Shown here one piece after another: positions 32,462 through 47,045 of a DNA stretch of 64,000 nt (its first letter is position 1; the number at the start of each line of letters is the position of its first letter). The position numbers were made by a program, and so were the translations under genes. The notes under the pieces are model-generated. The model ran no database searches. It was not told the DNA's origin and was given only the letters and a program-made list of their open reading frames with translations. Origin of the DNA: an uncultured delta proteobacterium (lineage in GTDB: Bacteria > Desulfobacterota > Desulfomonilia > UBA1062); assembly GCA_963785235.1 (NCBI GenBank), contig CAWAUM010000002.1, positions 257,308 to 321,307 of the forward strand, read 5' to 3'.

Positions 32462-33100
32462 GTCTCGGATACCCCGCGGATCTGGCCAAAATTATGGCTG
32501 GCACACCGACGGGTGTGCAACGGAGTGGCGCTACTGGGTAGGACCAAGCTGACAGATTGTCATGTAGTGTCCATCCGGAATCGGCTCTTTTTCTCTGACT
32601 CTTCGTTGCTCTCAGAATTTAATCCTCCGGTAAGCGAGGTACGAGATTCCGAGATATCAGGTATATGCCTGCGGTTAATTTCATCGAGTGCCTCGATTCA
32701 TGAAAAAACATCTTGTTTCCAAATGAACCCAATTCAATAAAAAATACCGTATAAAACCGACGTTTTTACGGCTATAATACGTTTTTGGCCGGCAAAAAGC
32801 GCATTGCAGGCCTTTGTTTGGCATGGCCAAAGCAATTCGGCACGGCCCCTCCCGCCCGGAATCTGAGCATTCAGGTCCTGGCGGCAGCTTTTTGGGGCCG
32901 AAAAGGAAGTTATCGGGGTAAATAATGCCATTTCAAAGGATTATTACCCTTCAATATCGAGTAGATAACTCAGGTATCCGCTACCAGTACGGGATTGTTT
33001 GCCTCACCTCGTTTCATGGGTAGCATCAAGGAATAATGCGGGTTTACGATGGGGTCGGCGATTACACCCCTTCAACCCATAATAGCAGGAGGAATAGATC

Positions 33101-33445
33101 ATGCAGGCAGCGAACGTTGTGCAGTTTTTCTGGCCGGAGATGAATAACACGGTATCTATTGTTGCCCTCGTTGTGGCGCTGATGATATTCGTCTTCGGAG
33201 CGTTCAGCGGCGCTCGGGCAAACAAAATCCGCATCGTCTTTGCCGTGATCCTGTCCACGGCGATTGGCTGGTTCGCCATGCCCCTGGCTGTCAAGGCGGC
33301 CTCGGCATTGCACATTTTGGATACGAATTCAGGCCTCATGATTCTCATCACGGCAATGATGTTGTTTGTCGCGGCCGTTGCGACAAGCATCTATGAGATA
33401 ATTACGGTAACATTCCCGGATATCGGCATGTCACCCAGGAAGTGA
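33101..33445 (+). CDS. Hypothetical 3-TM membrane protein
   Basis: AGGAGG RBS and three hydrophobic helices. Confidence 0.6.
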   Translation: MQAANVVQFFWPEMNNTVSIVALVVALMIFVFGAFSGARANKIRIVFAVILSTAIGWFAMPLAVKAASALHILDTNSGLMILITAMMLFVAAVATSIYEIITVTFPDIGMSPRK

Positions 33446-33964
33446 GGCGGGGAATACGTTTGTCGTATCAAATCAACAGTATGTTTTTATATGGAAAGTT
33501 ATTTAAGATGCGGAAATTATAGTCATTGAACGATCTTGCAAAACTCCTTAACATCGTGTTTCCGTCTCCGGCGCAGATCGGGAAGACAGAGATTTCTCCC
33601 TTCGGCCGAAATGACAGGGGTGGTCGGTATCCCAGTCGCCGCTACAAAAAATATATCGAAATGCCAATCCGGAATATTGGTTTGTCATCGAACTGGAAAG
33701 CGGAGAAACAATCCTGACTCAGAATGCAGTAATAACAAAAATTCTCGTTACCGTTCTATTCCGGCAAAAGGCATACGGTCAAAGATCGAATTTCACGACC
33801 AGGAAGGTCTTCCAGTGAAGCATGCCCTGTCAGCATCGCTGTGATTATGCAATCACATCCGGACGCGATTAATCTCTCCGAATAAGGTTCACGTCCAACA
33901 AACTGCCGGCCGGCGCGTCTACGATATTAAATCACCATCCGGCCTTTCCCGCACACCAAAGCCC

Positions 33965-34495
33965 TTACCTGTTCTCCCTGAACGTATACACTTCTTTCAG
34001 TTTCTTGTCGTATTTGACGACCTTGAACTCACCGAGATAGGTATTGAAAAGCGGATATCCTTTTTCTGCCCAGCCGACTATGCCATTTTCAACGAGATAC
34101 ACGTTCCTGTATCCATACCTGTACAACGTTCCGACAAAATAGGTGGCCCGGTGTGTTGTCCGGCAGTACACCCACATCTCCGTCTCCGGGTCGGCCCACT
34201 TATCGGGCATCGTATAGGCATGGCCTGAATCGACATTGTTCGAATCCTTGATATGACCGCTGGCAAACTCTGCTTCAGTCCGCAGGTCTATAAGGACTGC
34301 CTTGCTCTTGCCGGCCTGAACTTCCTGCCATTTCCGGTACAGGTCATCGATTGTCTTTATCCTGTCCGGGGAGATGAGTCCTCTCATTTCCTTGTAGTAC
34401 GTTTTCTCTCCGCTTTTGGTTCCTTCTGCCCATGCGCCATCCGGCATGATGCACAATATCGCCATGATCAAACCCGCCAGCATTTTCTTCATCAT
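33965..34495 (-). CDS. Exported rhodanese-like protein
   Basis: Signal peptide ending AWA, LIDLRT..EF..GHI, YCRTTHRA active loop and GIVGW...GYP. Confidence 0.85.
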   Translation of the reverse strand: MMKKMLAGLIMAILCIMPDGAWAEGTKSGEKTYYKEMRGLISPDRIKTIDDLYRKWQEVQAGKSKAVLIDLRTEAEFASGHIKDSNNVDSGHAYTMPDKWADPETEMWVYCRTTHRATYFVGTLYRYGYRNVYLVENGIVGWAEKGYPLFNTYLGEFKVVKYDKKLKEVYTFRENR

Positions 34496-34772
34496 CTCAC
34501 CTCATCACATAATAATGATATATCTTGATATTTTGCATGATTGCATGTATCTGCCAGCGCCTCATACAGCATTTTTAATATGTCAGGAAGAAGTGTATAG
34601 AAAGTGTACACAACTTTTCATGGTTCCGCAGACCGAGCCTCAGACACGTGTTTGCCGGGAGACCGGCATGTTTTCGATGCATCTTCCCGCCTGTCAAAAA
34701 CAGACTGAGGCAGGTTTTTCGGTCAGAGCATCAGTCCAACCCCCGGAATGTCAATTGATTTATTTTAATACA

Positions 34773-34787
34773 GCGAAAAGAGTACCA
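34773..34787 (-). promoter_or_regulatory. sigma54 promoter (copy 3 of the repeated module)
   Basis: ATCATTC-TGGTACTCTTTTCGC; 34770-34880 aligns with 37850-37960. Confidence 0.6.
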
Positions 34788-34920
34788 GAATGATACACAT
34801 TACTATTGAACACTTTCTGAGGCGGTTCAATAGTACGATTTTCAGCGAATTTTATTTCGTCGATGTCGATCATGACTCGACGGTTCCACATGAGCAGGCC
34901 TGAATAATTTCTTCAGATCT

Positions 34921-35232
34921 TCACTCATCACCGGTTTCAAAGCCGTTTGGCAGGCGTGTGGCTTTCAATGGAATGCTGGACATCAGTTTCGGCATCTCTG
35001 AAGATTGACTATCAGAATATTTTTCCAGGCGGTTCAGAACTGCCATGTAAGTCAAGGGAACAAAGGGTGAGATGAATGCCAGAAATGTTATTGTCGTCCC
35101 GAAGGCGCTGGACCACTTTCCGGTATTGATACCGTAAATGATGCCGCCTGCCGTGATGATGAGAGCAAGTGAGATGAATTGAATACTGATGATACGCTTA
35201 ATGCCTCTTTTTTCCTGTTCGATTGTTTTCAT
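34921..35232 (-). CDS. Small 2-TM hypothetical protein
   Basis: GGAG RBS before MKTIEQEK; two hydrophobic helices. Confidence 0.55.
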   Translation of the reverse strand: MKTIEQEKRGIKRIISIQFISLALIITAGGIIYGINTGKWSSAFGTTITFLAFISPFVPLTYMAVLNRLEKYSDSQSSEMPKLMSSIPLKATRLPNGFETGDE

Positions 35233-35419
35233 CGGTAGAATCTCCTTGGTTTCTATATCTTTCCAAACTGAGTTTCTTGTTGAGGAACTCGAATAAGGTT
35301 GCTTTACAGTAATAGTCATCGGGGAGTCTTTTCCGGAATTCAGATAGAATATCAGCCTGTTGTTGTTGAGAATAGAGTTCCCATCTGGTCGAGATATCCT
35401 TTTGCTGCCTCTTTTTCAT
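35198..35419 (-). CDS. 73-aa hypothetical protein
   Basis: RBS-like GGAGCAGGA; candidate sigma54 site CGGCAAAGCCTATGC at 35456-35470. Confidence 0.45.
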   Translation of the reverse strand: MKKRQQKDISTRWELYSQQQQADILSEFRKRLPDDYYCKATLFEFLNKKLSLERYRNQGDSTDENNRTGKKRH

Positions 35420-35633
35420 AACAAGTATCCTGCTCCGTTGATGTTGATATTCCCTGCATAGGCTTTGCCGGCAACCTGTTTAAGAAATGATAAATTTTTC
35501 ATCGTCCCTGGATAGATATCTGCTACCGCCTGGTTTTTATAAGCTGTTTTTCTGCCGGAGGTTTATCAGCTGCGGAGAGAAGTGAGGCGGTCAAAGCGGA
35601 TAGCCCCAGTCCCCTGGGCAACCTGTGTTATGA

Positions 35634-35822
35634 TCATACTCTTGCAAGCATTTCCGGCATAATTGCCTCGCCTTCCCGTTTCACTGCCGTATCCCGACAG
35701 TATTTCCCCGGAATGGCCAGTCGCCCGACCAGCCAGCAGCAGAGCATGACCAACGGAAAAACGACATACAGGGCTGCGGGAAGAAACCACAAGCATACGA
35801 TTACTTCTGCCATTCCAGTCAT
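35634..35822 (-). CDS. 62-aa membrane peptide, paralog A
   Basis: MTGMAEVIVCLWFLPAALYVVFPLVMLCCWLVGRL...; GGAGG 7 nt upstream; paralogous to 37594-37788. Confidence 0.75.
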   Translation of the reverse strand: MTGMAEVIVCLWFLPAALYVVFPLVMLCCWLVGRLAIPGKYCRDTAVKREGEAIMPEMLARV

Positions 35823-35891
35823 TTTCATACCTCCCTTTGTATTGTGTGCACTCGGCGCCATCGCCAGCAGTCTGCGTTCACCCTTCCTTAC

Positions 35892-35906
35892 GCAAAAGGA
35901 GTACCA
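35892..35906 (-). promoter_or_regulatory. sigma54 promoter (copy 1)
   Basis: TGGTACTCCTTTTGC, 70 bp upstream of peptide A. Confidence 0.75.
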
Positions 35907-36025
35907 GAATGATAAAGTTCGCCGCCCAACATCACGGAAACTGGTCAACACTTCGATATTGCATGGAAATTGACTAGAGAGAGGGCGATCATCCGCTGCC
36001 GGCTTCTCATCAGGCGGCGTGAAAA

Positions 36026-36075
36026 TGTCTACCGAATAGACATTATATTCTTCGATACTGTACAAGAAGTGGACA
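36026..36075. promoter_or_regulatory. Tandem palindromic enhancer (UAS) sites
   Basis: TGTCTA-N5-TAGACA (36026-36042) and TGTACA-N5-TGGACA (36059-36075), 33 bp apart. Confidence 0.7.
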
Positions 36076-36110
36076 GTATCGGGGAATTGGCCAGTCTGTC
36101 ATCCGGAAGT

Positions 36111-37289
36111 TTATCCCTCAGCCGCCTGGCGAAGAACATCTGTCACCGTATTAACCGGTATTGTCAGGTGCTTGAATGCCAATTCCCCTATTCTGAACAG
36201 TACGACCTGCCGCAGCATGCACTCGCGTCTCGGCGGCCTCCACGCATCGCCCCAACTCGGCTTCAAGGCGCCGCATGGCCGGCACCAGTGCCGGGCAAAA
36301 CAACTCGCGCATTCCGCGAGATCGTCGGTTTGCACGGGCATCCTCATTCCCTGCGGCAGATGATCGCTCGCAAGAATGTTGCCTGAATAGAATTGCGGAA
36401 ACTTGTAGAGAAGATGGCAGGCGTAGACATCACCATCAGGTCCGACGGCAAAATCACGAATTCCGGCAGGGCGCCGGTCGTCGACGACAGATGCTCCCCC
36501 ACCATCGAGCAAGGGCACAAGGAGTTCGCTGAAGTACACGTCAACAAGGCCATTTCGCCCATACAGCAGCGATTCGAACCACCAGTTGACAGCCTCCAGA
36601 TGGCAATCAAGAAGCCGCTCAAAATGACAGTCGTCGAATGGATACAGTTCCAGCGGTGCCGGGGGATAGGCGGTATGAAAAATGAGCTTCTCTACCCCCA
36701 GGCCTGCCGTGAACCGGAAGAGATCAACAATTGAACATCCCTGATCGATATGCCTGGACGTATATACGGTTTCGATCGCGGTCGGTACCCGGTTGCTAAG
36801 CAATGCCTCTATCGTCGTAACGGCCTCATCGAAGCTGCCCATCCCTTGTGCACTGGGTCTCAACGCATCGTGGATATACTTGGGACCATCGAGGCTGACT
36901 GTCGCAGCGATGTTATGTTCTCTGCAGAATGCCACCATTTCAGGAGCATGTTGAGAGGCGCCGTTCGTCACTATTCCGAAACTCGGCGGCTGCGAGATGA
37001 TTCCCTGGCTGACCATGCGCATGGTCTCATCGACGATCGCCCGCACTGCTGGCATGTTCAGTGTCGGTTCACCTCCGGAAAATTGCAAGAAATTGCACGA
37101 TTCGAAATGTGAAAAAACGCGTCGAACGATATTTCTAGCGGCTTCCTCGCTCATCAACCTTGTCCTGCTTTCTGCATCCGGAAGCCTGACGCAACAGTAA
37201 CTGCAATTGAGGTTGCATGTTTCGGAAAGGAAGAGTGTGAGTTTATCGATCTTATTTATCGATTGCGACCTAGGTATCTGTGAATTCAA
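36111..37289 (-). CDS. Radical SAM protein with SPASM-like C-terminal domain
   Basis: CNLNCSYC, GGEP, TNG, VSLDG..HD..R, GDVYAC and CASCFARHWCRPC...C. Likely TTG start at 37289 after GGAGG (ORF track starts at 37421). Confidence 0.85.
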   Translation of the reverse strand: MNSQIPRSQSINKIDKLTLFLSETCNLNCSYCCVRLPDAESRTRLMSEEAARNIVRRVFSHFESCNFLQFSGGEPTLNMPAVRAIVDETMRMVSQGIISQPPSFGIVTNGASQHAPEMVAFCREHNIAATVSLDGPKYIHDALRPSAQGMGSFDEAVTTIEALLSNRVPTAIETVYTSRHIDQGCSIVDLFRFTAGLGVEKLIFHTAYPPAPLELYPFDDCHFERLLDCHLEAVNWWFESLLYGRNGLVDVYFSELLVPLLDGGGASVVDDRRPAGIRDFAVGPDGDVYACHLLYKFPQFYSGNILASDHLPQGMRMPVQTDDLAECASCFARHWCRPCGALKPSWGDAWRPPRRECMLRQVVLFRIGELAFKHLTIPVNTVTDVLRQAAEG

Positions 37290-37593
37290 GCGATTTTCCC
37301 TCCATGCCACCATGCCTGCACTTTTCGTCGAGATGCAGGCATTCCCGGATACGGAGCGGCTGACCCGTGGCAGCCGCTCCTGCCTGAAAATTGGATCGTA
37401 CGGGAACGATTTCTCCTGCACCTAATGTTCATTTTTCTTCTCCCGGTGCATTAACAAAAAAACGCCGATTGCCGCTATCTGACCAATCCTGCCTGACCTG
37501 TCACACCGACACCTCATCTTTCCTGAATTTTGAGCCGCTCAGGTGAACGAGGGAATCAAGGCGGGGGATTCCCCCTCTCGTTGCCGGAATGGT

Positions 37594-37788
37594 TTACGCT
37601 CCGTCTTTTGCAAACATTTCCGGTACATCTGCCTCGGCTTCCCGGTATACTGCTGATTCCCGACGTTCTTTCTGCGGGAAAATCAGTCGCCCGACCAGCC
37701 AGCCGGACAGCATGGCCAGCGGGATAACGCTGTACAGCACGACCGGAAGAATCCACAAACATACGATCACATCTGCTAATCCAGTCAT
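37594..37788 (-). CDS. 64-aa membrane peptide, paralog B
   Basis: MTGLADVIVCLWILPVVLYSVIPLAMLSGWLVGRL...; GGAGG 7 nt upstream. Confidence 0.75.
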   Translation of the reverse strand: MTGLADVIVCLWILPVVLYSVIPLAMLSGWLVGRLIFPQKERRESAVYREAEADVPEMFAKDGA

Positions 37789-37853
37789 TTTTATCCCTCC
37801 CTTTGCGTTGTGGGCAATCGGCGCCACCATCGGCATCGTTTATGAATCCCCAT

Positions 37854-37868
37854 GCGAAAGGAGTACCA
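37854..37868 (-). promoter_or_regulatory. sigma54 promoter (copy 2)
   Basis: TGGTACTCCTTTCGC, with an IHF-like AATCGAAATATTG on the minus strand near 37908-37920. Confidence 0.7.
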
Positions 37869-37988
37869 GAATGATCCTGATCGCCGCCGATCCTTTCTGG
37901 GGTGGTTCAATATTTCGATTTTTCATGGAAATTGATTTCGTCGAGAGCGATCATCAGACGGCATTCTCTCAAGCGTTGGCGTGAAAAA

Positions 37989-38037
37989 TGTCCATCGATT
38001 AGACATTTTTCCCTCGACGATATATAAGAAATTGACA
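37989..38037. promoter_or_regulatory. Tandem palindromic enhancer (UAS) sites
   Basis: TGTCCA-N5-TAGACA (37989-38005) and TATATA-N5-TTGACA (38021-38037), immediately upstream of the activator gene. Confidence 0.65.
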
Positions 38038-38093
38038 GTCACAGAAACCGGCTCAGTCCCACCACTGCATGTTCACGACAGAAGAGGTCCGGC

Positions 38094-39657
38094 ATGGCCG
38101 AACAGTTCCATCTCTCGGACAAGGAATTCTCCCTGTTCTGCGAGGTCACCACTTCATTCCATACTATCCGGGACATGGACGAAATGATCCTGGATATCTT
38201 CAGCAAAATCAAATCCATCCTGAACATCGAGGGTGCATCCATAGCCCTGCACGATGCGGCGGACAAGGAGTTTTATTTTATCCGTACCGTCGGCGAATGT
38301 GCGGGCATGAAAAACACCGACAACGCCGCCCTGCGTTTTCCCGACGATAAAGGCGTTGCCGGCTGGGTAAGGGAGAACAACTGCGCAGCCGTGATTAACG
38401 ACGTCTCACGTGACAAACGTTTTTTCAGCGGTATGGATGTAAAAGGTCACTTCAATACCCAATCGATGATCTGCGTGCCGCTCCAGACCAGGAAAGGATT
38501 TCTGGGAGTCCTGTACGCGTTGAACAAAATCAACGGCCAATTCAGCGAAAGGGAGGAGAAAATTCTGGTGATCCTCTCCGGGACTATCGCAGTTTCCATC
38601 GAAAATGCGAAACTGTATGGCGAACTGAAAGATCACGTCCATTCTCTCGAACGGGAAAAACGGCTCCTGCTGTCCCAGGCGCAGGCCGGCTCAGGCTTCA
38701 AGGAGATCATCGGTTCCAGCCTGCCGATGCGCCGGATGTTCGAGCTCATCGAGAAAGTGATCGACACCCCGACAACGGTCCTGATCCAGGGAGAAACCGG
38801 TACCGGCAAGGAACTTATCGCCAAGGTCATCCATTATAACGGACCGCTGAAAAACAAGCCCTTTGTCGCCGAAAACTGCGGCGCCCTGCCGGAACAGCTG
38901 CTGGAGAGCGAACTGTTCGGCCATGTCAGGGGTGCCTTTACCGGGGCGGTAATGAACAAGAAAGGCCTGTTTGAGATCGCCGACGGCGGCACCATCTTTC
39001 TCGATGAGGTCGGCGAAATGTCGCCGCACATGCAGGTCAAGCTTCTCAGGGTTCTCCAGGAGTGGTCAGTTCAGGCCGGTCGGCGGTAATCACACCCGCC
39101 AGGTCAATGTGCGGCTGATCGCCTCGACCAACCGGGACCTCGCCGAAGAAATCCGCAAGGGAAATTTCCGGGAGGACCTCTACTATCGCATCAATGTCTT
39201 TCAGATCACGCCCCCGCCACTACGGGAGAGGAAAGAGGACATCCTCCTTCTCGCCAGCCATTTTCTCGAAAAATTCGCCGGAAAGACCGGCAGGACGGTT
39301 CCCGTTATTTCTCCCCAGGTCCTGAACCTCCTGATGCGATTCGACTGGCCCGGCAACGTCAGGGAACTTGAAAACGAAATGGAACGGGCCTTGACCATGG
39401 CCGGCAAGGGAAAGATCATCCTGAAGGAGTTCCTCTCAGACAAGATTAGGGGAACAGGGCAGGAAGGAAAGGATAGCAACGCCCCTGCAGAGTTCTCCCG
39501 GACCTTGAAGGATGCTATCCAACTCGTCGAGGCGCGTCTCATCCGGGAGACCCTGGCCTCAACCGGCGGCAACCGATCCAGGACGGCCAAGTCGCTCGGT
39601 ATTTCCAGGCAGGGATTACTCAACAAAATCGCGGCATACAACATCCCCATAGGATAG
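38094..39657 (+). CDS. GAF-AAA+-Fis-HTH sigma54-dependent activator, frameshift near 39,062
   Basis: GAF domain, [28 protein letters not shown] and KLLRVLQE, then [16 protein letters not shown] and HTH in ORF 38971-39657. Confidence 0.9.
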
Positions 39658-39672
39658 AAATCGGTACCGGAT

Positions 39673-41913
39673 ATGAACCACCTCTGGCGTGGGCTCTTGA
39701 TCGGATCACTGATCGCCATTGCAGGAACGGCTCTTTTCTTTTCGCCCTTGGGGCTGAAGGTCGAGGAGGAATTCGGCCTGGCGATGCTGTTCAAGATCCG
39801 GGGGTCGCGTCTTCCTCCCGATGGGGTGGTGATCGTCAACCTTGACCAGGACCCTTCCTCCCGGCTGGGCCTGCCGGAAAATTTCAGCGTATGGCCGCGG
39901 ACTATCCATGCGAGGATGGTCGACAGGCTGAAGAGCCTCGGTGCGGAAGCCATCGCCTTCGACGTTCATTTCGCCGAAGCGAGGAATCCCGCCGATGATC
40001 TCGTCCTCGCCGAATCGATCCGCCGGGCCGGCAACGTCATCCTGTTCGCAGAACTGAAACGGCAAACCATCGACCCCTCTGGCCGCGCCCGGGAAGCAGG
40101 CAAGGTCGATATCGACATCCTTGTTCCTCCGATTCCGCCCCTCGCCGATGCGGCCCTGGCGCTTGCCCCCTTCCCCATCCCCAAACGGCCGGTGCGGATC
40201 AACCAGACCTGGCTGTTCAAGCAGTCCGCCGGAGAGATGCCGACCTTGCCGGTCGTCGTCCTCCAGACCATGGCCGGCAAACACGACGCCTACCTGCAGT
40301 CGCTTCTCGGCAGGAACATGCCCGACCGCATCGACACACCGCCGGCGATCACCCGGCAGGCGGCCGCTCCGGTCGACAACATCCGCACCGCACGGGAGAT
40401 CTTCAAGCAGCGCCCCGAGCTGAAGGCACAGCTTCTCTCCGACCTCGCCGCAGGTCCAACCGCACTGCCCTCGCCCGCCGACCGGGCCCTGCTGCAGGCG
40501 CTGGTGCGAATGTACGCAGGCAGGGACAACATCCACATCAACTATTACGGCCCGCCGGCATCACTCCTCACCTTATCGTACAGTGACATCCTGTCGCCGG
40601 AGAGCTCAGACACCACCGCCCTCGAGGAACGGATCAGAGGCAGGGCGGTATTCATCGGCGCTGCCAGAAAGACCTGGTCCGGCCAGAAGGACGGTTTCTA
40701 CACCGTTTTTTCACAACCGGACGGGCTCGATCTGAGCGGTGTCGAGATCGCGGCGACAATATATGCCAATCTTCTCGAAAATTCCCAGATCCGGCGATCA
40801 GCGCCGCTCTTCAGCGCCGCCCTGCTCGTTGCCTGCAGCCTCGCGGCCTGCCTGATCAGCTTTCTGCTGTCTCCGACGATCGCGGCAATCGCCCTTTCAG
40901 CACTCGTCTTCTGCTACCTTTCCGTGGCGAGTTATTTTTTTGTCCGGCATGGCGTCTGGCCGCCGCTCATCATTCCCCTGGCCATGCAGTTGCCGGCCGC
41001 CATCCTCGCCTCCATCCTCTGCAAATATGTCAGGGCATGCCAGGAAAGGGGAAATGTGCGCAAGGCTCTGCAGTTGTATCTTCCCGACAATGTGGTGAGC
41101 GAACTGACGAGCGACCTTTCGTTCATCAGGACCGGCGACCGGATGGTCTACAGCGCCTGCCTGATCACCGATGCCCAGCACTACACCTCACTCTCGGAAA
41201 AATTGGCCCCTGCAGAAATGAGCAGGTTGATGAAAGACTACTTCGAGCACCTCTTCAGGCCGGTGAACGAATACGACGGACAGGTCTGCAATGTGATCGG
41301 AGATTCAATGCTGGCGCTCTGGCCTTCCGTTCAGCCTCTCGCCGAACAAAGAGCAAAGGCCTGTCAAGCCGCCTTGCAGATACACGCGGCTGTTGACCAG
41401 TTCAACCGCAAGCATCCGGAAACCTCACTGCCGACCAGGATCGGCCTCCATTACGGCTACCTGCTGATGGGCAATATCGGCGCGGAAAGCCATTTCGAAT
41501 ATGCCCCGGTCGGCGATATCGTCAACACGGCATCGCGGATCGAAGGGCTGAACAAGCTGCTGGGCACCCGGATCCTCGCCTCCGAGGCGACGGTTGAAGG
41601 TGTAGCCGGAGTTCTCACCCGCAAACTGGGCATGTTCCTTTTTGCAGGCAAGACCCAACCGATCGCGATCCGCGAGCTGTTGAGCGCCGATGAGGAAGTC
41701 GAGAAGCAACAGGAGACGATTGTGCAGATATTTCCCGAAGCACTGAATGATTTTCAGCAGAGGCACTGGAGTCGGGCGATCGAAGGTTTCAGGCTCTGCA
41801 TCGCCCTGCTGGGCGATGACGGCCCCTCGCGGTTCTACCTGCAGCTCAGCAGATCCTACCGCGAGCAGCCGCCGCCGACAGATTGGGGGGGAACGCTCCT
41901 GGTGGACAAGTGA
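39673..41913 (+). CDS. CHASE2-domain class III adenylate/guanylate cyclase
   Basis: TM, CHASE2 (WPR..HA, AFDVHF, SGVEI.A), three TMs and a cyclase domain (TD, GD, RIGLHYG, GDIVNTASRIEGLNK). Confidence 0.9.
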   Translation: MNHLWRGLLIGSLIAIAGTALFFSPLGLKVEEEFGLAMLFKIRGSRLPPDGVVIVNLDQDPSSRLGLPENFSVWPRTIHARMVDRLKSLGAEAIAFDVHFAEARNPADDLVLAESIRRAGNVILFAELKRQTIDPSGRAREAGKVDIDILVPPIPPLADAALALAPFPIPKRPVRINQTWLFKQSAGEMPTLPVVVLQTMAGKHDAYLQSLLGRNMPDRIDTPPAITRQAAAPVDNIRTAREIFKQRPELKAQLLSDLAAGPTALPSPADRALLQALVRMYAGRDNIHINYYGPPASLLTLSYSDILSPESSDTTALEERIRGRAVFIGAARKTWSGQKDGFYTVFSQPDGLDLSGVEIAATIYANLLENSQIRRSAPLFSAALLVACSLAACLISFLLSPTIAAIALSALVFCYLSVASYFFVRHGVWPPLIIPLAMQLPAAILASILCKYVRACQERGNVRKALQLYLPDNVVSELTSDLSFIRTGDRMVYSACLITDAQHYTSLSEKLAPAEMSRLMKDYFEHLFRPVNEYDGQVCNVIGDSMLALWPSVQPLAEQRAKACQAALQIHAAVDQFNRKHPETSLPTRIGLHYGYLLMGNIGAESHFEYAPVGDIVNTASRIEGLNKLLGTRILASEATVEGVAGVLTRKLGMFLFAGKTQPIAIRELLSADEEVEKQQETIVQIFPEALNDFQQRHWSRAIEGFRLCIALLGDDGPSRFYLQLSRSYREQPPPTDWGGTLLVDK

Positions 41914-42089
41914 CCGAAAATGGGTTGCCGAATGACTGTCGATCAGCAACCCATGGCCGGAAAGGCCTTGTTTCGTGCCATGACCGTTCAGCCGGGGTGG
42001 TCGACGATCTCTAAAGAAATCGTGCGAGTGCACCGCATGGCTCCCGTCATCAACCGTTGTTTTTCATTATCACGGACTGTGCACCGAGT

Positions 42090-42323
42090 TCAGTTGCAGA
42101 TCTGTTTATACCCGGTGCTGGTTTTGATGACGATGCAACCCGGGCTGCCCCAGGCGAACAGCAAGGAGTGACTTGTCGCTTTGTTCAGACTTGCCTCTGA
42201 CAACTTGCGGATTTCCACCTTGTCGCCATGTTTAGAGCCCACTCCCTCGATAGCGACAACGTCGACAAGGTCTCCCGTCACATCATCAAAAATAAGTTCA
42301 ACTTTAAAACTCTCTCTCGGCAT
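42090..42323 (-). CDS. 77-aa protein with C-terminal GSPGC-x12-C motif
   Basis: AAAGGAGG RBS 7 nt before the ATG at 42323; ends WGSPGCIVIKTSTGYKQICN. Confidence 0.7.
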   Translation of the reverse strand: MPRESFKVELIFDDVTGDLVDVVAIEGVGSKHGDKVEIRKLSEASLNKATSHSLLFAWGSPGCIVIKTSTGYKQICN

Positions 42324-42499
42324 CGCATGACCTCCTTTGGCACATAATGATTGAACATCGATAGATGGCTGGACTAACGATACAAACAATTTGATTCCTC
42401 GATCATCCACCTCCTTTCCAAGGTATTGAACTGCCTTGGCTCAGTCGTTCAGCTCACTCCCTTGCTGCCGTGTCTGTAAAGAATTGGCCGGCCTGATTG

Positions 42500-45400
42500 T
42501 CAGAACACTAGTGTCACCCGGAGCAGCAGCAGCTGGTCGGGAGCTATCCGGGGATTGCCGGGATCGGTGTCCTGGAATCTGATCTCCTGATCGAAGAGGT
42601 TTCTTGCCTCCAGCAATACAATTCCGCGACGTTTCGGCAGGCGATAGCCGATACTGCAGTCAACGACCCAGAACTGATCGTCGTCCTGCATGGCCGCGAG
42701 GGTGAGGGGATCGAAGAAATCACCCCGCTGGTCGGCATAGGTCGCGTAAAGACGCAGGAACATCCCTGAGCCATGGAACAAGCTGCCTCCCAACCGCAGC
42801 CGATTTGTTTCAAGTGTCTGGAAATTCTCAGTCCCGACAAACTCATCCCCCCTGTCAAATTCTTCCAGGAAATATTCCATGCTGGTCGAGAGCCATAAGC
42901 GAGGGGTCCAGTAGAGATAGACACGGGCCAGATTTTCCTGCCAATCGGCCTCTCTGCGTTCCGGCAAACCCGATAGATTCTGAGAGTCCAAACTCTCGTA
43001 AGGGACATCCTGGCGGCGGGCGGCGAGTTCCATCCCGCCGAAAAGATTTTCGGAAAAGCCTTGATCCACGGCCCCGCCGTAGATCCAGTTGCCGACTCCC
43101 GCCGCATCATCATAAAATTGATTGAATCCGGCAATCTGAGTAGGTTCGATGGTCTGATCGGAAACAAGGGATCTGGTCAAAACCCGGAAAACGGAAGTCC
43201 GGAACGTTGTTTTCGGCAAGGGATTCCAAGCAAGGCCCAATTTGGGATTGAACTGATCTTTTTCAGACTGCTCGTCGTCAAAGGCATCATAACTCATCCC
43301 GGTGGTGAGAATAAGATTCTTCAAAAGATCGATCTGAGAATAGATGTATGCATTGGCATGCGTGATATCGCTGGAATCCCCCGGCGAGGAATCAGACGCT
43401 ACGGAGAGATCATATATCAGTTCGAAATTCTGCGTGTTTTCAGCTGCAAACAGGCCTGTTCCACCTGTAACGTCAAATACGGCGGACCGGAACTGATGCT
43501 GCACTTCAGCGAGATACCCATCGGTCTGTTCGAAGTAACTCAGCACTCCCCCATCAAATCCGGTTTCAAACCTTTCCTCCAGGTCCTGCACGGTCACTAC
43601 GCCCAGCAGTGCCGAAACAGGAGAGAAATTGTGATGAAAACCGATTCTCCCTGTCTTCCTGTTGGTTTCCTGTTCCTGATCACTGAAAAACCACTGAGGA
43701 TCAAACAGCATTTCCAGATCGCCCGTATCCCTTTCGCTATTCCGTACCTCAGCGAGGACGCTGGTATCGTTGGAAACACGGTACTGGAGATAGGCGTTCT
43801 GGATATCCTGATCCTGGTCGTTATTTTCCCGGAATCCTTCGGCCTGGTAATGAAACTGGCCGAGACTGTAGGAAAATCTGTTCCACACCCCGGACTGAAC
43901 CACCTCGTCGCCGAGAATCTCATTGCCGCCAGCCACACCACTGGCCTGGAGAGCCAGCCTGTTGCGGACAAACAGCGGGGTGTACTCGTTGAACGAGGCC
44001 TCGGCGGGTCCGGCTCCGTCGAGGATGAACAGGCTGCTTTCCGCCATTTGCGGTTGAACAGGGGTAATACTGAGAGGCTGGAGCAACTGCGATTGCAGCA
44101 GTTCGCTGACCCTGGCGATTTCATGTCGAGGAAGGACGCTGTAGGAGTCGGCAAGGAATCGGTGGGCTGAATAGTTGGCCGGATCGATGTTCACCGATTT
44201 CCACCCCTCGACCAGGGCCAGCTGCTGGAAGCCGAGATCACTGTAGATCCGGCCAAGACTGGCGCTGCGGGTGGCCAGATCGTCGTCGAGCAGCAGTCTC
44301 GAGCGATAGACCGCCCGGTTGTCGTTGAGCTCGATCGACCGCTGCAGGTCCCGCAGGGCCTCCACCGGCCGGTTGACGCTCTGCTTGCGCAGGGCGTCGT
44401 AGAACCAGGGGGTAGGGTCGGCCGGGTCGAGGGACTTGGCAATGTCGTACTGCCGCCGGGATTGACTGTCCCGTTTCTCCTCATAGTAGGCCTTGCCCAG
44501 GTAGCTGCGGATCAGGGCGTTGCCGGGATCAAGGGCGGCGGCGATCTCGATCTCGGCCCGCCCCGCTTCCAGGTCGCCATCCCGGATCAAGGCCAGCCCC
44601 AGTCCGAGACGGGCGAGAGGCAGGGCGGGATCGAGAGAAATGGCCTTTCTGAATGCCTCCTGGGCCTTGCCGGTTTCGATACGGGTCAGGTGGGCAAAAC
44701 CGAGGACGGTCTGGATCCGGCCGACATCGGGGTTGAGGGCAGCGGCCTGCCGGGCTGAACTCTCGGCCTTGTCCAGCTCGCCGACCGAGAGCTGGAGTTC
44801 GGCGAGACGGGCCAGAATCTCGGCGCTGTCAGGATTGAATTCTTTCGCCTTCTCGAGGGTCGCCAATGCGCCGGGAAGGTCGAAACGGGACTGCTGGGCA
44901 TACGACAAGGCAAGACCGGCGGCGGCGGAACGGGGATTGATCTCGATCGCCTTTGAGGCAAGGCGCAAGGCCATTTCCGAGTTGTTCTGGACGACCTCGA
45001 TAATGGCCAGCAGGGCAAAGGCCTCACTGCTGGCCGGATCCTTCTCCAGTATTCCGGCGATCAGCTCGCGTGCCTCTGCAACCCTGCCGACAGCGAGATT
45101 ATCGACTGCCTGCAGGAGGGGATCACTATCGCTCTTTTCCTCCCTGACAGCGGGGCGATCGATGATGAACGGGTAATACAGCGTCCACTGCGCGGCATCC
45201 CGGGGCCTGACCACGGTCGTATAACGCGGCGCCATGCCTCTCTCGGCGACGATCGCCTGGCCGGTGGAGACGTCCAACTGCCCCTGCCCGTTGACGGCCC
45301 TGACCTTTCCCTCGAAGACGATGATGACCGTATTTTCGGGTTTGACCTGAACGAGGAACTCTGTACCCTCAACCGCCCCGTTGACATAGGGCGTGGCGAT

Positions 45401-45781
45401 GTCCAGAGAGCGGGGGCGGTGGCTGAAGATATGGAGGATGCCTTTCAGGAGCTTGATGAGGCTGGCTGTTCCGGTCGAGGAAACGCCGAAACTGAGGGTG
45501 CTGTTCTGGTCGACCCGGAGAAGGGATTCGTTGGCCAGGACCACGGCCACCCGCCCATGATTCCCGACCCTCAGGGTATCGCCGGGGCAGAGGCTGTTGT
45601 CTCTCCGAACAGGATCCCAGGTCGACTGCCCGCTGTTCTGAACCTGCGCATCGCCTTGCACGGAAACCAGCCGGCCGGCCGGTTCCCGGCATCGCTCCGC
45701 AGCACCGGCGGCAGAGAAAAAGATATGAATGCCGACAACAACCAACCATGGGACCGAAAATACGCGTGCTCCAATGCTCAT
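42500..45781 (-). CDS. FecR-TPR-beta-barrel outer-membrane receptor (NsrA-like)
   Basis: Signal peptide, FecR domain (LCPGDTLRVG, TPYVNGAVEGTEF), many TPRs, AVYRSRLLLD, and an amphipathic beta-strand C-terminal half ending in F. Confidence 0.85.
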   Translation of the reverse strand: MSIGARVFSVPWLVVVGIHIFFSAAGAAERCREPAGRLVSVQGDAQVQNSGQSTWDPVRRDNSLCPGDTLRVGNHGRVAVVLANESLLRVDQNSTLSFGVSSTGTASLIKLLKGILHIFSHRPRSLDIATPYVNGAVEGTEFLVQVKPENTVIIVFEGKVRAVNGQGQLDVSTGQAIVAERGMAPRYTTVVRPRDAAQWTLYYPFIIDRPAVREEKSDSDPLLQAVDNLAVGRVAEARELIAGILEKDPASSEAFALLAIIEVVQNNSEMALRLASKAIEINPRSAAAGLALSYAQQSRFDLPGALATLEKAKEFNPDSAEILARLAELQLSVGELDKAESSARQAAALNPDVGRIQTVLGFAHLTRIETGKAQEAFRKAISLDPALPLARLGLGLALIRDGDLEAGRAEIEIAAALDPGNALIRSYLGKAYYEEKRDSQSRRQYDIAKSLDPADPTPWFYDALRKQSVNRPVEALRDLQRSIELNDNRAVYRSRLLLDDDLATRSASLGRIYSDLGFQQLALVEGWKSVNIDPANYSAHRFLADSYSVLPRHEIARVSELLQSQLLQPLSITPVQPQMAESSLFILDGAGPAEASFNEYTPLFVRNRLALQASGVAGGNEILGDEVVQSGVWNRFSYSLGQFHYQAEGFRENNDQDQDIQNAYLQYRVSNDTSVLAEVRNSERDTGDLEMLFDPQWFFSDQEQETNRKTGRIGFHHNFSPVSALLGVVTVQDLEERFETGFDGGVLSYFEQTDGYLAEVQHQFRSAVFDVTGGTGLFAAENTQNFELIYDLSVASDSSPGDSSDITHANAYIYSQIDLLKNLILTTGMSYDAFDDEQSEKDQFNPKLGLAWNPLPKTTFRTSVFRVLTRSLVSDQTIEPTQIAGFNQFYDDAAGVGNWIYGGAVDQGFSENLFGGMELAARRQDVPYESLDSQNLSGLPERREADWQENLARVYLYWTPRLWLSTSMEYFLEEFDRGDEFVGTENFQTLETNRLRLGGSLFHGSGMFLRLYATYADQRGDFFDPLTLAAMQDDDQFWVVDCSIGYRLPKRRGIVLLEARNLFDQEIRFQDTDPGNPRIAPDQLLLLRVTLVF

Positions 45782-46142
45782 AGCTTCCCCTCCAGAAACT
45801 ATTGGTGCATACGGTCTTGCCTTCCTGCTGCCCCCTTATTCTTCGGAATGCCTGCTCACGGAACGCGAGTAGAAGATCCGATCACCCGCAAAAGAATCAT
45901 TTCCCTGATGCCCAACGGCGATCTGTCATGACTTTCCTGATTTATCGCAACCAGGATGTACGAGCAATATTGCCCAATATATAAGAAAAGGCTATCCTGT
46001 TTGTCAGGCCATAGCAAGTAATTTTCAGACTTTTCCGACAAACGCCCATTCCGGCAGGAAGGAGAAGGTTGAACGATCAAACGGGAACATCTGCAAGGTC
46101 TCTGACCGTGCATCACAATTAGGGAATACAACAGGAATCGAA

Positions 46143-47045
46143 ATGAATATCGGTTTAGCCCTGGGAAGCGGTTCTGCCCGCGGATGGTCGCATATAGGTG
46201 TTATCAGCGCCCTGAGTGATCAGGGCATCGTGCCCGATATTGTTTGCGGCACCTCCGTGGGCTCATTGGTCGGCGCAGCGTATGTTTCAGGTACCATAGA
46301 TAAATTAGAGGAATGGGTGCGGTCACTGACTAAATTTGAGACAGCCAGGTTTTTTGAAATTAATCCTTCATTGAACGGTTTCGTGAATACGGAAAGGCTG
46401 CGCCATTTCTTGTATGAATACGTGGCGAATGATAATGCATTGATAGAAGATCTTGCCAAACGATTTGCCGCCGTCGCGACGGAACTGGAAACCGGCAGGG
46501 AGGTATGGCTGACCAGAGGTCCGGTGCTGGAGGCAGTCTGGTCGTCCATCTCGTTACCCGGGCTCTTTCCGGCCATAAAAAACAATAACAAGTGGCTTGT
46601 GGACGGCGGATTGGTCAATCCGGTTCCCGTTTCGGTCTGTAGAGCGCTGGGCGCGGAGATTGTCATAGCCGTAAATTTGAATGGCGATATTGTCGGAAAA
46701 CATTTCCAGAAGCCGAAAAAATTAATAAACCAGGAAAAAAATCAAGGTGTTGTAGGTAAAATTACAGGATTGGTCGCAGAATATACCGCTTCAATATTTG
46801 CAACGGCGAAGGTTGAAGATCAACCACCGAACTTGTTTGAAGCTATTGCCGGCTCCGTCAATATTACCCAGGACAGAATCACCAGGAGTCGAATGGCTGG
46901 GGACCCGCCGGATATTTTGCTTTCACCGAGGTTGTCCCATATTGGATTATTGGAGTTTTATCGGGCAAATGAAGCTATAAGTGAGGGAAAAGAATGTGTC
47001 CGGAGAATGATGCCGATTATCCAACATGCATTGGGTTTAGACTGA
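46143..47045 (+). CDS. rssA: Patatin-like phospholipase (RssA-like)
   Basis: LGSGSARGWSHIG, GTSVG and VDGGLVNPVP. Confidence 0.85.
   Translation: MNIGLALGSGSARGWSHIGVISALSDQGIVPDIVCGTSVGSLVGAAYVSGTIDKLEEWVRSLTKFETARFFEINPSLNGFVNTERLRHFLYEYVANDNALIEDLAKRFAAVATELETGREVWLTRGPVLEAVWSSISLPGLFPAIKNNNKWLVDGGLVNPVPVSVCRALGAEIVIAVNLNGDIVGKHFQKPKKLINQEKNQGVVGKITGLVAEYTASIFATAKVEDQPPNLFEAIAGSVNITQDRITRSRMAGDPPDILLSPRLSHIGLLEFYRANEAISEGKECVRRMMPIIQHALGLD

Follow-up and report, generated by a model that had tools for sequence, protein, structure and literature searches.

Introduction

In Sinorhizobium meliloti, the receptor NsrA and the CHASE2 cyclases CyaK, CyaD1 and CyaD2 relay a proteinaceous plant signal to the Crp-like regulator Clr, according to the available text of the reports (PMC7529298, PMC13001267). 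Gene clusters of Campylobacterota, as the accessible part of the source describes them, carry a CHASE2 adenylate cyclase, a phosphodiesterase, an outer-membrane protein that has a FecR domain, and a TPR protein (PMC9239204), and in Burkholderia, by the portion of the report at hand, FecR/LysM proteins pair with CHASE2 histidine kinases (PMC5192318). The locus analysed here lies in a 64,000-nt stretch of DNA from an uncultured delta proteobacterium (contig CAWAUM010000002.1 of assembly GCA_963785235.1, positions 257,308 to 321,307), referred to below as the window, and encodes an outer-membrane receptor, a CHASE2 nucleotidyl cyclase and a sigma54 activator with a GAF domain. Because of the S. 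meliloti system and the other published CHASE2 pairings, the receptor-cyclase half of this locus is of a known kind, as far as the accessible text of those reports goes (PMC7529298, PMC9239204).

The other half is formed by the activator and the genes that diverge from it. Cyclic AMP and cyclic GMP act on bacterial transcription through Crp-family proteins. Full-text literature searches, with most subscription journals outside their reach, found no published description of a sigma54 activator that senses a cyclic nucleoside monophosphate (cNMP), and an earlier reading of this DNA from its letters alone, here called the original prediction, had likewise not recognised the combination as described.

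Results

Gene content and proposed relay

Genes were called from a listing of open reading frames (ORFs) together with Pfam and NCBIfam scans of the window. The activator gene (nt 38094-39657, plus strand) specifies GAF, AAA+ (with the GAFTGA motif) and HTH_8 domains, identified by Pfam on both of its ORF pieces, and is followed after 15 nt by the gene for a class III CHASE2 nucleotidyl cyclase of 746 aa on the same strand (nt 39673-41913; Pfam CHASE2 7e-28, Guanylate_cyc 1.5e-14). The genes for a 1093-aa outer-membrane receptor (nt 42500-45781; Pfam FecR at E 6e-13 and TPRs, a signal helix and a barrel) and for a small protein of 77 aa with two C-terminal Cys residues (nt 42090-42323; AGGAGG ribosome-binding site and ATG start, no family), both on the minus strand, converge on the activator/cyclase pair, so that the arrangement first read from the letters, including the 15-bp gap, is confirmed by the ORF and Pfam analyses. 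Divergent from the activator are two peptide genes, pepA and pepB, and a radical SAM gene.

The locus is read here, with moderate confidence, as a four-to-five-gene module that leads from the cell envelope to a promoter. The receptor and the small partner protein would perceive an external or periplasmic cue, which the receptor would pass to the periplasmic CHASE2 domain of the inner-membrane cyclase. The cyclase would make a cyclic mononucleotide, cAMP or cGMP, and this would bind the phosphodiesterase (PDE)-type GAF domain of the activator encoded immediately upstream. The activator, in turn, would bind a palindrome, TGTCYA-N5-TRGACA, about 135 nt upstream of a -24/-12 promoter and switch on the gene for a 64-aa membrane peptide and the genes behind it. 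These comprise a rhodanese gene in the nearest relative; in the present genome a second copy of the peptide and a radical SAM gene recruited to the locus come in addition. The reading is built on features that were observed, namely gene content, co-conservation, the conservation of promoter and palindrome, the class to which the GAF domain belongs and a cyclase whose catalytic residues are intact; a contact between receptor and CHASE2 domain, the binding of a cNMP to the GAF domain, the protein that occupies the palindrome and the role of the peptide are what it predicts.

The cyclase is the sole CHASE2 protein of the genome and has a transmembrane (TM) segment, the periplasmic CHASE2 domain, three further TM segments and a cytoplasmic catalytic domain. 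Catalytic residues were placed by alignment to bPAC, and the metal-binding Asp residues D500 and D544, the transition-state Asn N618 and the Arg R622 are invariant in 77 of 77 aligned orthologs. From these residues the enzyme is probably active; its predicted product is either cAMP or cGMP.

Co-conservation of receptor, cyclase and activator

The cyclase belongs to a large family of orthologs of about 750 aa. Eighty loci with a cyclase ortholog (designated L with a number) were collected with an alignment of 15 orthologs from contigs representing one genome per species, and were scored by tblastn with the proteins of the window. Relatives with 82-91% identity exist outside this locus set; a metagenome scan with the single protein returned none, and a second metagenome scan gave relatives of at most 65% identity. 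The receptor lies beside the cyclase in 59 of the 66 loci with at least 600 nt of downstream sequence; the two genes share a strand in 31 of these and converge in the other 28. An intact activator is found directly upstream of the cyclase and on its strand in 34 of the 64 loci with at least 1700 nt upstream. Where both flanks are present (54 loci), 29 have both genes, 21 the receptor only, one the activator only and three neither. When ORFs of at least 90 aa within 8 kb were clustered, only cyclase, receptor and activator recurred; the next cluster, with members in eight loci, is the barrel half of split receptors.

In a FastTree reconstruction of 76 cyclases, the window copy falls into a well-supported clade of 31, of which 30, all from Desulfocapsaceae or Desulfobulbaceae, are linked to an activator, and the activator link occurs in at least three places on the tree. 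The reverse test used a profile of the GAF domain on 251 sampled genomes of the class to which G122 belongs (the genome of Desulfofustis glycolicus that holds L064). One strong match per genome (E <= 1e-40) was obtained in 22 of them, the next-best matches having E-values of 1e-15 or weaker, and the cyclase adjoins the activator in 19 of the 21 loci with downstream sequence. As these genomes overlap those of the 80-locus set, this is a test in the opposite direction and not an independent sample. The synteny survey that the original prediction had called for thus shows receptor, cyclase and GAF activator to be co-conserved.

The GAF domain of the activator

The best NCBIfam match of the activator is NifA, at 223 bits against a cut-off of 529, and NifA was rejected as its identity because of this score. 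In a single-sequence search of the PDB, the GAF domain matched PDE5, PDE2A, PDE10A, PDE6, CyaB2, 5w10 and 4mcw with E-values of 6.8e-15 to 2.4e-6 among the top 20 distinct sequences, and the GAF domains of sigma54 activators followed at 0.0055 (Nlh1) and 0.33 (3k2n). A profile of 33 orthologs gave 1.4e-27 for PDE5 and 2.3e-20 for PDE10, compared with 1.9e-8 for 3k2n, 4.5e-7 for Nlh1 and 4.7e-5 for NifA. Family conservation was mapped onto PDE2A GAF-B via an alignment to 1mc0. The invariant residues S49, A89, F120 and T122 and the near-invariant E67 align to S424, A459, F490, T492 and D439 of PDE2A; all of these except F490 were reportedly listed as cGMP contacts by Martinez et al. in 2002. Within the NKFDE motif, described for cNMP-binding GAF domains in the available text of PMC4411481, N144, K145 and F150 are invariant and position 154 is D or E. 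A structural model of the domain (mean predicted local distance difference test, pLDDT, 77.6) has as its top Foldseek neighbours 4mcw, the GAF domain of an HD-GYP protein, and 5w10, the cAMP-bound GAF domain of Lcd1. By sequence, the domain is of the cNMP-binding PDE/CyaB type, in agreement with the original prediction, and would be expected to bind such a ligand.

The effector position beside the cyclase

Forty loci have no activator directly upstream of the cyclase, many of them being incomplete, and in 11 of these 40 a CAP-type cNMP_binding protein is present, which in eight cases lies within about 1.7 kb upstream of the cyclase. Crp-like regulators are found 250-530 nt upstream and divergent in L075, L083, L085, L094 and L098. 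Other proteins near the cyclase combine cNMP_binding with HDOD (L081) or consist of a stand-alone domain (L077, L084); farther away are a PilZ, cNMP_binding and Ser/Thr kinase protein ending about 1.2 kb upstream in L072, and a stand-alone domain about 4 kb downstream in L087. The site beside the cyclase, as judged from these domain assignments, is an effector slot that in most lineages is occupied by proven kinds of cNMP receptor. The strongest indirect argument for the GAF activator as the cNMP receptor of its own clade is that this slot holds CAP-type receptors elsewhere, which also fits the earlier proposal that the activator replaces Crp.

Another case is L101, where a 928-aa protein (L101:3484-6270, minus strand) combines cNMP_binding, a sigma54 AAA+ domain, a lid and a segment of 4Fe-4S-like character. 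Its gene and the pair of CHASE2 cyclase and receptor, to which it lies upstream, are about 3 kb apart. From its domains, it is a candidate for an independent cNMP-dependent sigma54 activator.

Promoters, palindromes and peptides

The peptide gene pepA (nt 37594-37788, minus strand) codes for a hydrophobic peptide of 64 aa with the core W-x-L-P-V-x-L-x-I-I-x-P-L. A sigma54-type -24/-12 element, TGGTAC-N5-TCGC, lies 80 nt upstream of it (nt 37854-37868, minus strand), and the palindrome TGTCYA-N5-TRGACA, a putative upstream activating sequence (UAS), 137 nt upstream of this element (nt 37989-38005). The same arrangement recurs at the 64-aa paralog pepB (nt 35634-35828, minus strand, recognised from the ORF listing and by comparison with pepA), with the element TGGTAC-N5-TTGC 78 nt upstream of the gene (nt 35892-35906, minus strand) and the palindrome 136 nt upstream of the element (nt 36026-36042). 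No palindrome accompanies the third copy of the TGGTAC-N5-T[T/C]GC element on the minus strand (nt 34773-34787), which precedes the rhodanese gene by about 280 nt. Of the repeated UAS-sigma54 modules noted originally, two are therefore complete and the third consists of the promoter alone. The whole 3.9-Mb genome, which has an rpoN gene, contains exactly two copies of the strict palindrome, one at each peptide gene, and a palindrome-promoter pair at 125-145 nt spacing occurs nowhere else; the arrangement is more than chance, since it is limited to this one place.

The two peptides, which are the only copies in the genome, share 62% of their residues (76% over 242 nt of DNA) and form a hydrophobic membrane segment; pepB has four Cys residues. 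No Pfam or NCBIfam family matches them, and a word-based protein search with pepA returned only eight 'hypothetical' proteins. A hidden Markov model (HMM) of the peptide detected it in 22 loci (a further match, in L035, was false and was excluded). These are 22 of the 31 activator loci with at least 700 nt of upstream sequence: in 18 the gene is divergent within 900 nt, and in four it lies elsewhere only, just upstream of the receptor gene. None of the loci that lack the activator carries the peptide by this HMM. Of 26 regions upstream of peptide genes, 24 contain a -24/-12 element that agrees with the consensus at 8 or more of its 10 positions, compared with 346 of 5000 random 400-nt windows, and a palindrome 128-142 nt upstream of such an element is present in 14 of 26 compared with 15 of 5000. 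A blind scan of the 80 loci returned 16 palindrome-promoter pairs, of which 12 precede peptide genes called by the HMM, one (L036) lies beside the activator and before an unclassified 140-aa ORF, and three look like chance. The placing of UAS and sigma54 promoter in front of a peptide gene, as first noted in the window, is consequently a feature conserved among related loci.

Evidence against the relay and alternative readings

A number of observations count against the proposed relay. The activator gene is frameshifted in the window, with one base too many at nt 39063-39066. An ortholog of the cyclase was found in none of 14 genomes of the same genus. Class III cyclases with a Lys and Asp/Thr pair use ATP and those with Glu and Cys use GTP; the specificity positions here are the non-canonical N540 and A611 (in the family N43/D31/E2/G1 and A35/R32/T10), and because the canonical Lys/Asp or Glu/Cys pair is missing, the product may be either cAMP or cGMP. 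The locus has no phosphodiesterase gene. The genome has four more class III cyclase domains, together with five matches to CAP-type cNMP-binding proteins, so that cross-talk with other cyclases and CAP-type proteins is possible, and the circuit is not self-contained, contrary to what had been proposed. The resemblance of the GAF pocket to that of PDEs is only partial: an invariant Tyr stands at the position of PDE2A E512, the position of T488 is variable in the family, and so is the fifth position of the NKFDE motif (155). Foldseek does not separate cNMP-binding GAF domains from others (top match 2.4e-12, PtsP GAF 1.7e-10, 3k2n 2.1e-9). Finally, no peptide gene could be detected in 9 of the 31 eligible activator loci, and the palindrome as defined is missing from 12 of the 26 peptide promoters.

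Several of these points fit an alternative in which the genes are still a single module but the GAF domain senses another ligand, such as a metabolite or redox cofactor, and the cyclase signals via CAP-type proteins, activator and cyclase being co-transcribed branches. Known GAF domains of sigma54 activators do bind other ligands, about 10% of such activators carrying a GAF domain by the accessible text of PMC3162934, and the partial conservation of the pocket, the failure of Foldseek to discriminate between ligand classes and the CAP-type proteins of the genome are as this alternative would have it; the peptide operon itself even encodes a CAP-type protein and a GNAT acetyltransferase in four activator-bearing loci. 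It is nevertheless considered unlikely: sequence and profile searches favour the cNMP-binding GAF domains by many orders of magnitude, the activator is single-copy with the cyclase as its neighbour in nearly all loci of the reverse test, and the same neighbourhood elsewhere holds proven kinds of cNMP receptors.

The activator, which had been taken for a single gene, is FRAMESHIFTED: it consists of two overlapping ORFs (nt 38094-39089 and 38971-39657), and its Pfam sigma54 domain is split at about profile position 120 (Sigma54_activat 1.5e-49 and 1.6e-15; HTH_8 4e-12; the GAFTGA motif is present in the sequence). Dropping either T at 39063-39066 restores the frame, and the site lies outside any homopolymer run. 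Each of the 35 orthologs whose N-terminal match is complete reads as one ORF, of 516-564 aa. At this site the window was compared with contigs from four public runs. In each of the three that bridge it (one X1, two X3), one base is missing at 39063 or 39066. These contigs are from relatives and depart from the window at 4, 23 and 11 further letters; the four X1 pieces that match the window exactly break off at 39008 and start again at 39070, so that none of these four spans the site. The extra base is for these reasons either real in the source strain or an assembly error, and the relay in this genome either broken or mis-assembled.

Were the base real, the activator would be a pseudogene, the duplicated promoters would no longer be driven by it, and the module would be a decaying remnant. 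The position outside a homopolymer run, the intact state of every ortholog and the accessory nature of the module in this genus speak for such decay, as does a decayed activator without a cyclase in another genome. On the other side, every other gene of the module has an open frame, the palindromes and promoters are not only intact but duplicated, and near relatives do not have the extra base; an error of assembly is also possible, as no window-identical X1 contig bridges 39008-39070. A remnant is on balance a serious but somewhat doubtful explanation. The decayed activator just mentioned, L217 (G166:C1:3344688-3348107), has an internal TAG, lacks its ends and adjoins no cyclase, and is a decayed copy of the module.

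Origin of the module

Besides the 14 genomes of the same genus, 26 other relatives also lack a cyclase ortholog, and the best matches have 27-36% identity over the catalytic half. The G+C content of nt 38000-46000 is 0.53-0.635, compared with 0.516 for the genome and 0.41-0.51 for the flanks; the module itself has values of 0.58-0.635. The missing ortholog in the genus and the raised G+C suggest that horizontal transfer probably brought in the module, which is accessory here and has its closest named relatives in Desulfocapsaceae and Desulfobulbaceae. A search with the flanking DNA in the 14 same-genus genomes yielded no borders of an island.

Radical SAM gene, rhodanese and other outputs

The radical SAM gene (nt 36111-37421, minus strand; 436 aa; Pfam Radical_SAM 1.5e-13) lies between the two peptide genes and had been named, together with the peptides, as the output of the system. 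It has no tblastn match in 160 related loci, and among 121 other genomes of its class a single match of 29% identity. On this evidence it is a one-genome insertion between peptide modules, a recruit and not a defining part, and of the proposed output the peptide is what is conserved. Its assignment as radical SAM/SPASM is only partly borne out: the C-terminus has a SPASM-like Cys motif and NCBIfam similarity to SPASM peptide maturases, all below the cut-offs (best TIGR04064, 106 bits against 518.7), and Pfam gave no SPASM match at E <= 0.01.

The position of this gene raises the question of whether the peptides are precursors of a ribosomal natural product that the enzyme matures, the output being a modified peptide. 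Apart from the gene order, the interval from pepA to the radical SAM gene showed nothing resembling a terminator, and the likeness of the enzyme to SPASM maturases and the Cys residues of pepB are also compatible with this. The idea is very improbable, however, as the peptide family is present in 22 other loci without a radical SAM gene, the peptide is a hydrophobic membrane segment, and the enzyme falls below every NCBIfam cut-off and has no ortholog in the 121 genomes of the class.

In the nearest relative within the locus set, L114, whose activator is 85% identical, a rhodanese gene (77% identity) and a peptide gene are followed divergently by activator and cyclase. A single palindrome lies there 135 nt upstream of a single promoter, and neither a radical SAM gene nor a second peptide is present. 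Given this single-unit layout and the lack of the radical SAM gene in related loci, the promoter-peptide unit has, by sequence comparison, been duplicated around inserted genes in the present genome. What is conserved as output is the peptide and, in the nearest relative, the rhodanese encoded immediately behind it, which in the window is a protein of 176 aa with an N-terminal signal-like hydrophobic segment at residues 1-23 (nt 33965-34495, minus strand; Pfam Rhodanese 1.6e-15); L057 also has a rhodanese gene. A different continuation of the peptide operon is seen in L031:5772-7443, L034, L045 and L068 (minus strand), where genes follow for a protein of 126-130 aa, for a GNAT acetyltransferase and for a cNMP_binding protein of the CAP type, a pairing that recalls cAMP-regulated protein acetyltransferases.

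Two other genes of the region are conserved in none of the related loci: the patatin-like phospholipase gene divergent from the receptor gene (nt 46143-47045, plus strand), and that for a membrane protein with two hydrophobic segments (nt 34921-35319, minus strand), a 132-aa ORF with a probable internal start and without a Pfam or NCBIfam family. Rfam returned no match at E <= 0.4 across nt 33000-47000. No public sequencing run contained more than 0.37 of the words of the stretch, and no RNA run was listed.

The receptor

A signal helix, a FecR-like beta sandwich (residues 36-188, approximately), a TPR solenoid (about 221-566) and a 22-strand barrel (608-1092) make up the receptor in an AlphaFold model based on 22 orthologs (mean pLDDT 71.5; barrel 76-92). 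Foldseek matched the barrel to those of TonB-dependent transporters including FpvA, FecA and FhuA (E 1.7e-16), and a piece of the receptor ortholog in L030 matches Pfam TonB_dep_Rec_b-barrel. No plug domain was found by Pfam at E <= 0.01, the N-terminus consisting of the FecR and TPR parts. From the model, the barrel matches and the missing plug, the receptor is taken to be a transporter-type barrel fused to TPR and FecR-like domains; the name 'TonB-dependent transporter' was rejected because the plug is absent, despite the 22 strands. Receptor orthologs from Thermodesulfobacteriota, Nitrospirota and Pseudomonadota are 46-53% identical.

In eight loci (among them L030, L033, L036, L054, L062 and L076) the receptor is split into an N-terminal FecR-TPR ORF and a separate barrel ORF of 375-446 aa that matches TonB_dep_Rec_b-barrel, which reflects either a genuine split or frameshifts. 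A peptide-family gene with a -24/-12 element lies directly upstream of the receptor gene and on its strand in L036, L038, L054, L067, L044 (L044:12093-12341) and L076 (L076:16165-16443). As peptide gene and element precede the receptor gene there, the receptor of these six loci may be under sigma54 control, a possible positive feedback.

The small protein downstream of the receptor

The receptor gene is followed immediately, on its own strand, by an ORF of 55-90 aa without a signal peptide, whose product ends in a motif resembling NP-x-[W/C]-V-x-I-G-G-x-W-Y. By HMMs it is present in at least 37 of the 50 loci with room for it, and the motif is visible by eye in several of the remaining 13. The window copy, which ends in GSPGC-x12-IC-N, represents a divergent 'SPG-C' subfamily, related to the main one by hhalign with a probability of 83% over the last 20 columns, and has an ortholog at the same position in L072. 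Neither Pfam nor NCBIfam contains a family for it. NsrA-like receptors may lack a known component, for which the small protein is a candidate.

Six loci have an in-frame TGA at exactly the position that is W or C in orthologs, and the conserved motif can be read on beyond it to the true stop, as in NPT-TGA-VRIGGKVYCR-stop (L044:8042-8239, L047:3472-3675, L048:12228-12419, L076:12242-12439, L038:12258-12458 and L109:2791-3009, all on the minus strand). At 13-33 nt behind the TGA is a short hairpin that has a GGU(C) loop and seven pairs, two of them with compensatory changes; it is weak at -4.45 kcal/mol (RNAalifold). The TGA at the W/C position and the hairpin together make this form, found in relatives only, a candidate new family of small selenoproteins; the window copy has Cys at the position. 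The DNA that separates the small gene from the convergent cyclase gene also contains a conserved nucleotide block, GGGG-N-TATTTCCCCACC-N-GAATAACCCCCTGCCAGTC. This block lies about 50-110 nt after the small gene in L044, L047, L048, L076 and L038, gives rise to spurious ORFs in L046, L063 and L064, and may be an RNA element or a bidirectional terminator.

Discussion

The original prediction placed the genes of the locus correctly, and its proposals of co-conservation and of a cNMP-type GAF domain have held; an uninterrupted activator, a conserved radical SAM output and a self-contained circuit have not. A broader proposal, on which the evidence leaves the balance about even, is that the activator is the first cyclic-nucleotide-gated sigma54 enhancer-binding protein and the end point of a portable relay, with a plug-less receptor and a small partner protein, in some species possibly containing selenocysteine, and with an effector that can be swapped from one lineage to another (GAF activator, Crp, CAP-domain sigma54 activator, CAP-kinase or CAP-HDOD). 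Should the product of the cyclase be a ligand of the GAF domain, second-messenger signalling would be tied directly to sigma54, and enhancer-binding proteins would gain a new class of input. The module also offers a compact test bed for the poorly understood pairing of CHASE2 and FecR-outer-membrane proteins, as it has a defined predicted promoter and natural effector swaps, and one carrier, Desulfofustis glycolicus DSM 9705 (L064), is in culture.

Compared with known systems, the GAF domain is closest to those of PDE5, PDE2, PDE10, PDE6, CyaB2 and Lcd1, which give its best sequence and profile matches and are among its top fold matches, and with which it shares the invariant N-K-F and several pocket residues. 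Those domains regulate phosphodiesterase, cyclase or diguanylate cyclase domains, whereas here the regulated part is a sigma54 AAA+ activator. The architecture of GAF, AAA+ and HTH_8 is that of NifA, NorR, FhlA and Nlh1/Nlh2, but the GAF domains of sigma54 activators that were compared (NifA, Nlh1, 3k2n) are much weaker profile matches than the PDE domains. GAF domains of this class of activators sense 2-oxoglutarate, NO or formate, and none of the activators is, to our knowledge, paired with a cyclase.

With the FecA-FecR-FecI system, the module shares a 22-strand barrel of the TonB-dependent transporter type and a FecR-type periplasmic domain in signalling across the envelope. Here, however, barrel and FecR-like domain are fused in one plug-less outer-membrane protein, the inner-membrane partner is a cyclase instead of an anti-sigma factor, and the output is through sigma54 and not an extracytoplasmic function (ECF) sigma factor. 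The cluster of Campylobacterota likewise joins a CHASE2 cyclase to a FecR-domain outer-membrane protein and TPRs, and horizontal transfer is described for it too; as far as the accessible text of the source goes, its FecR outer-membrane and TPR proteins are separate, a phosphodiesterase is present and a sigma54 activator is not mentioned, whereas in the window FecR, TPR and barrel form one chain and a phosphodiesterase is missing.

The closest counterpart is the NsrA system, which in the available descriptions also consists of an outer-membrane beta-barrel receptor and inner-membrane CHASE2 cyclases whose nucleotide switches on transcription. By description only, the receptors are alike as well, with the barrel at residues 600-1200 in NsrA (PMC7529298, available text) and 608-1092 here, where it follows a large periplasmic N-terminal part. 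The effector differs: in place of a Crp-family protein such as Clr, it is a GAF-sigma54 activator encoded in the operon of the cyclase, and no CAP-type gene is present in the module of the window. Also distinct from the NsrA system are the sigma54 promoter in front of a membrane peptide and the small partner protein encoded after the receptor gene.

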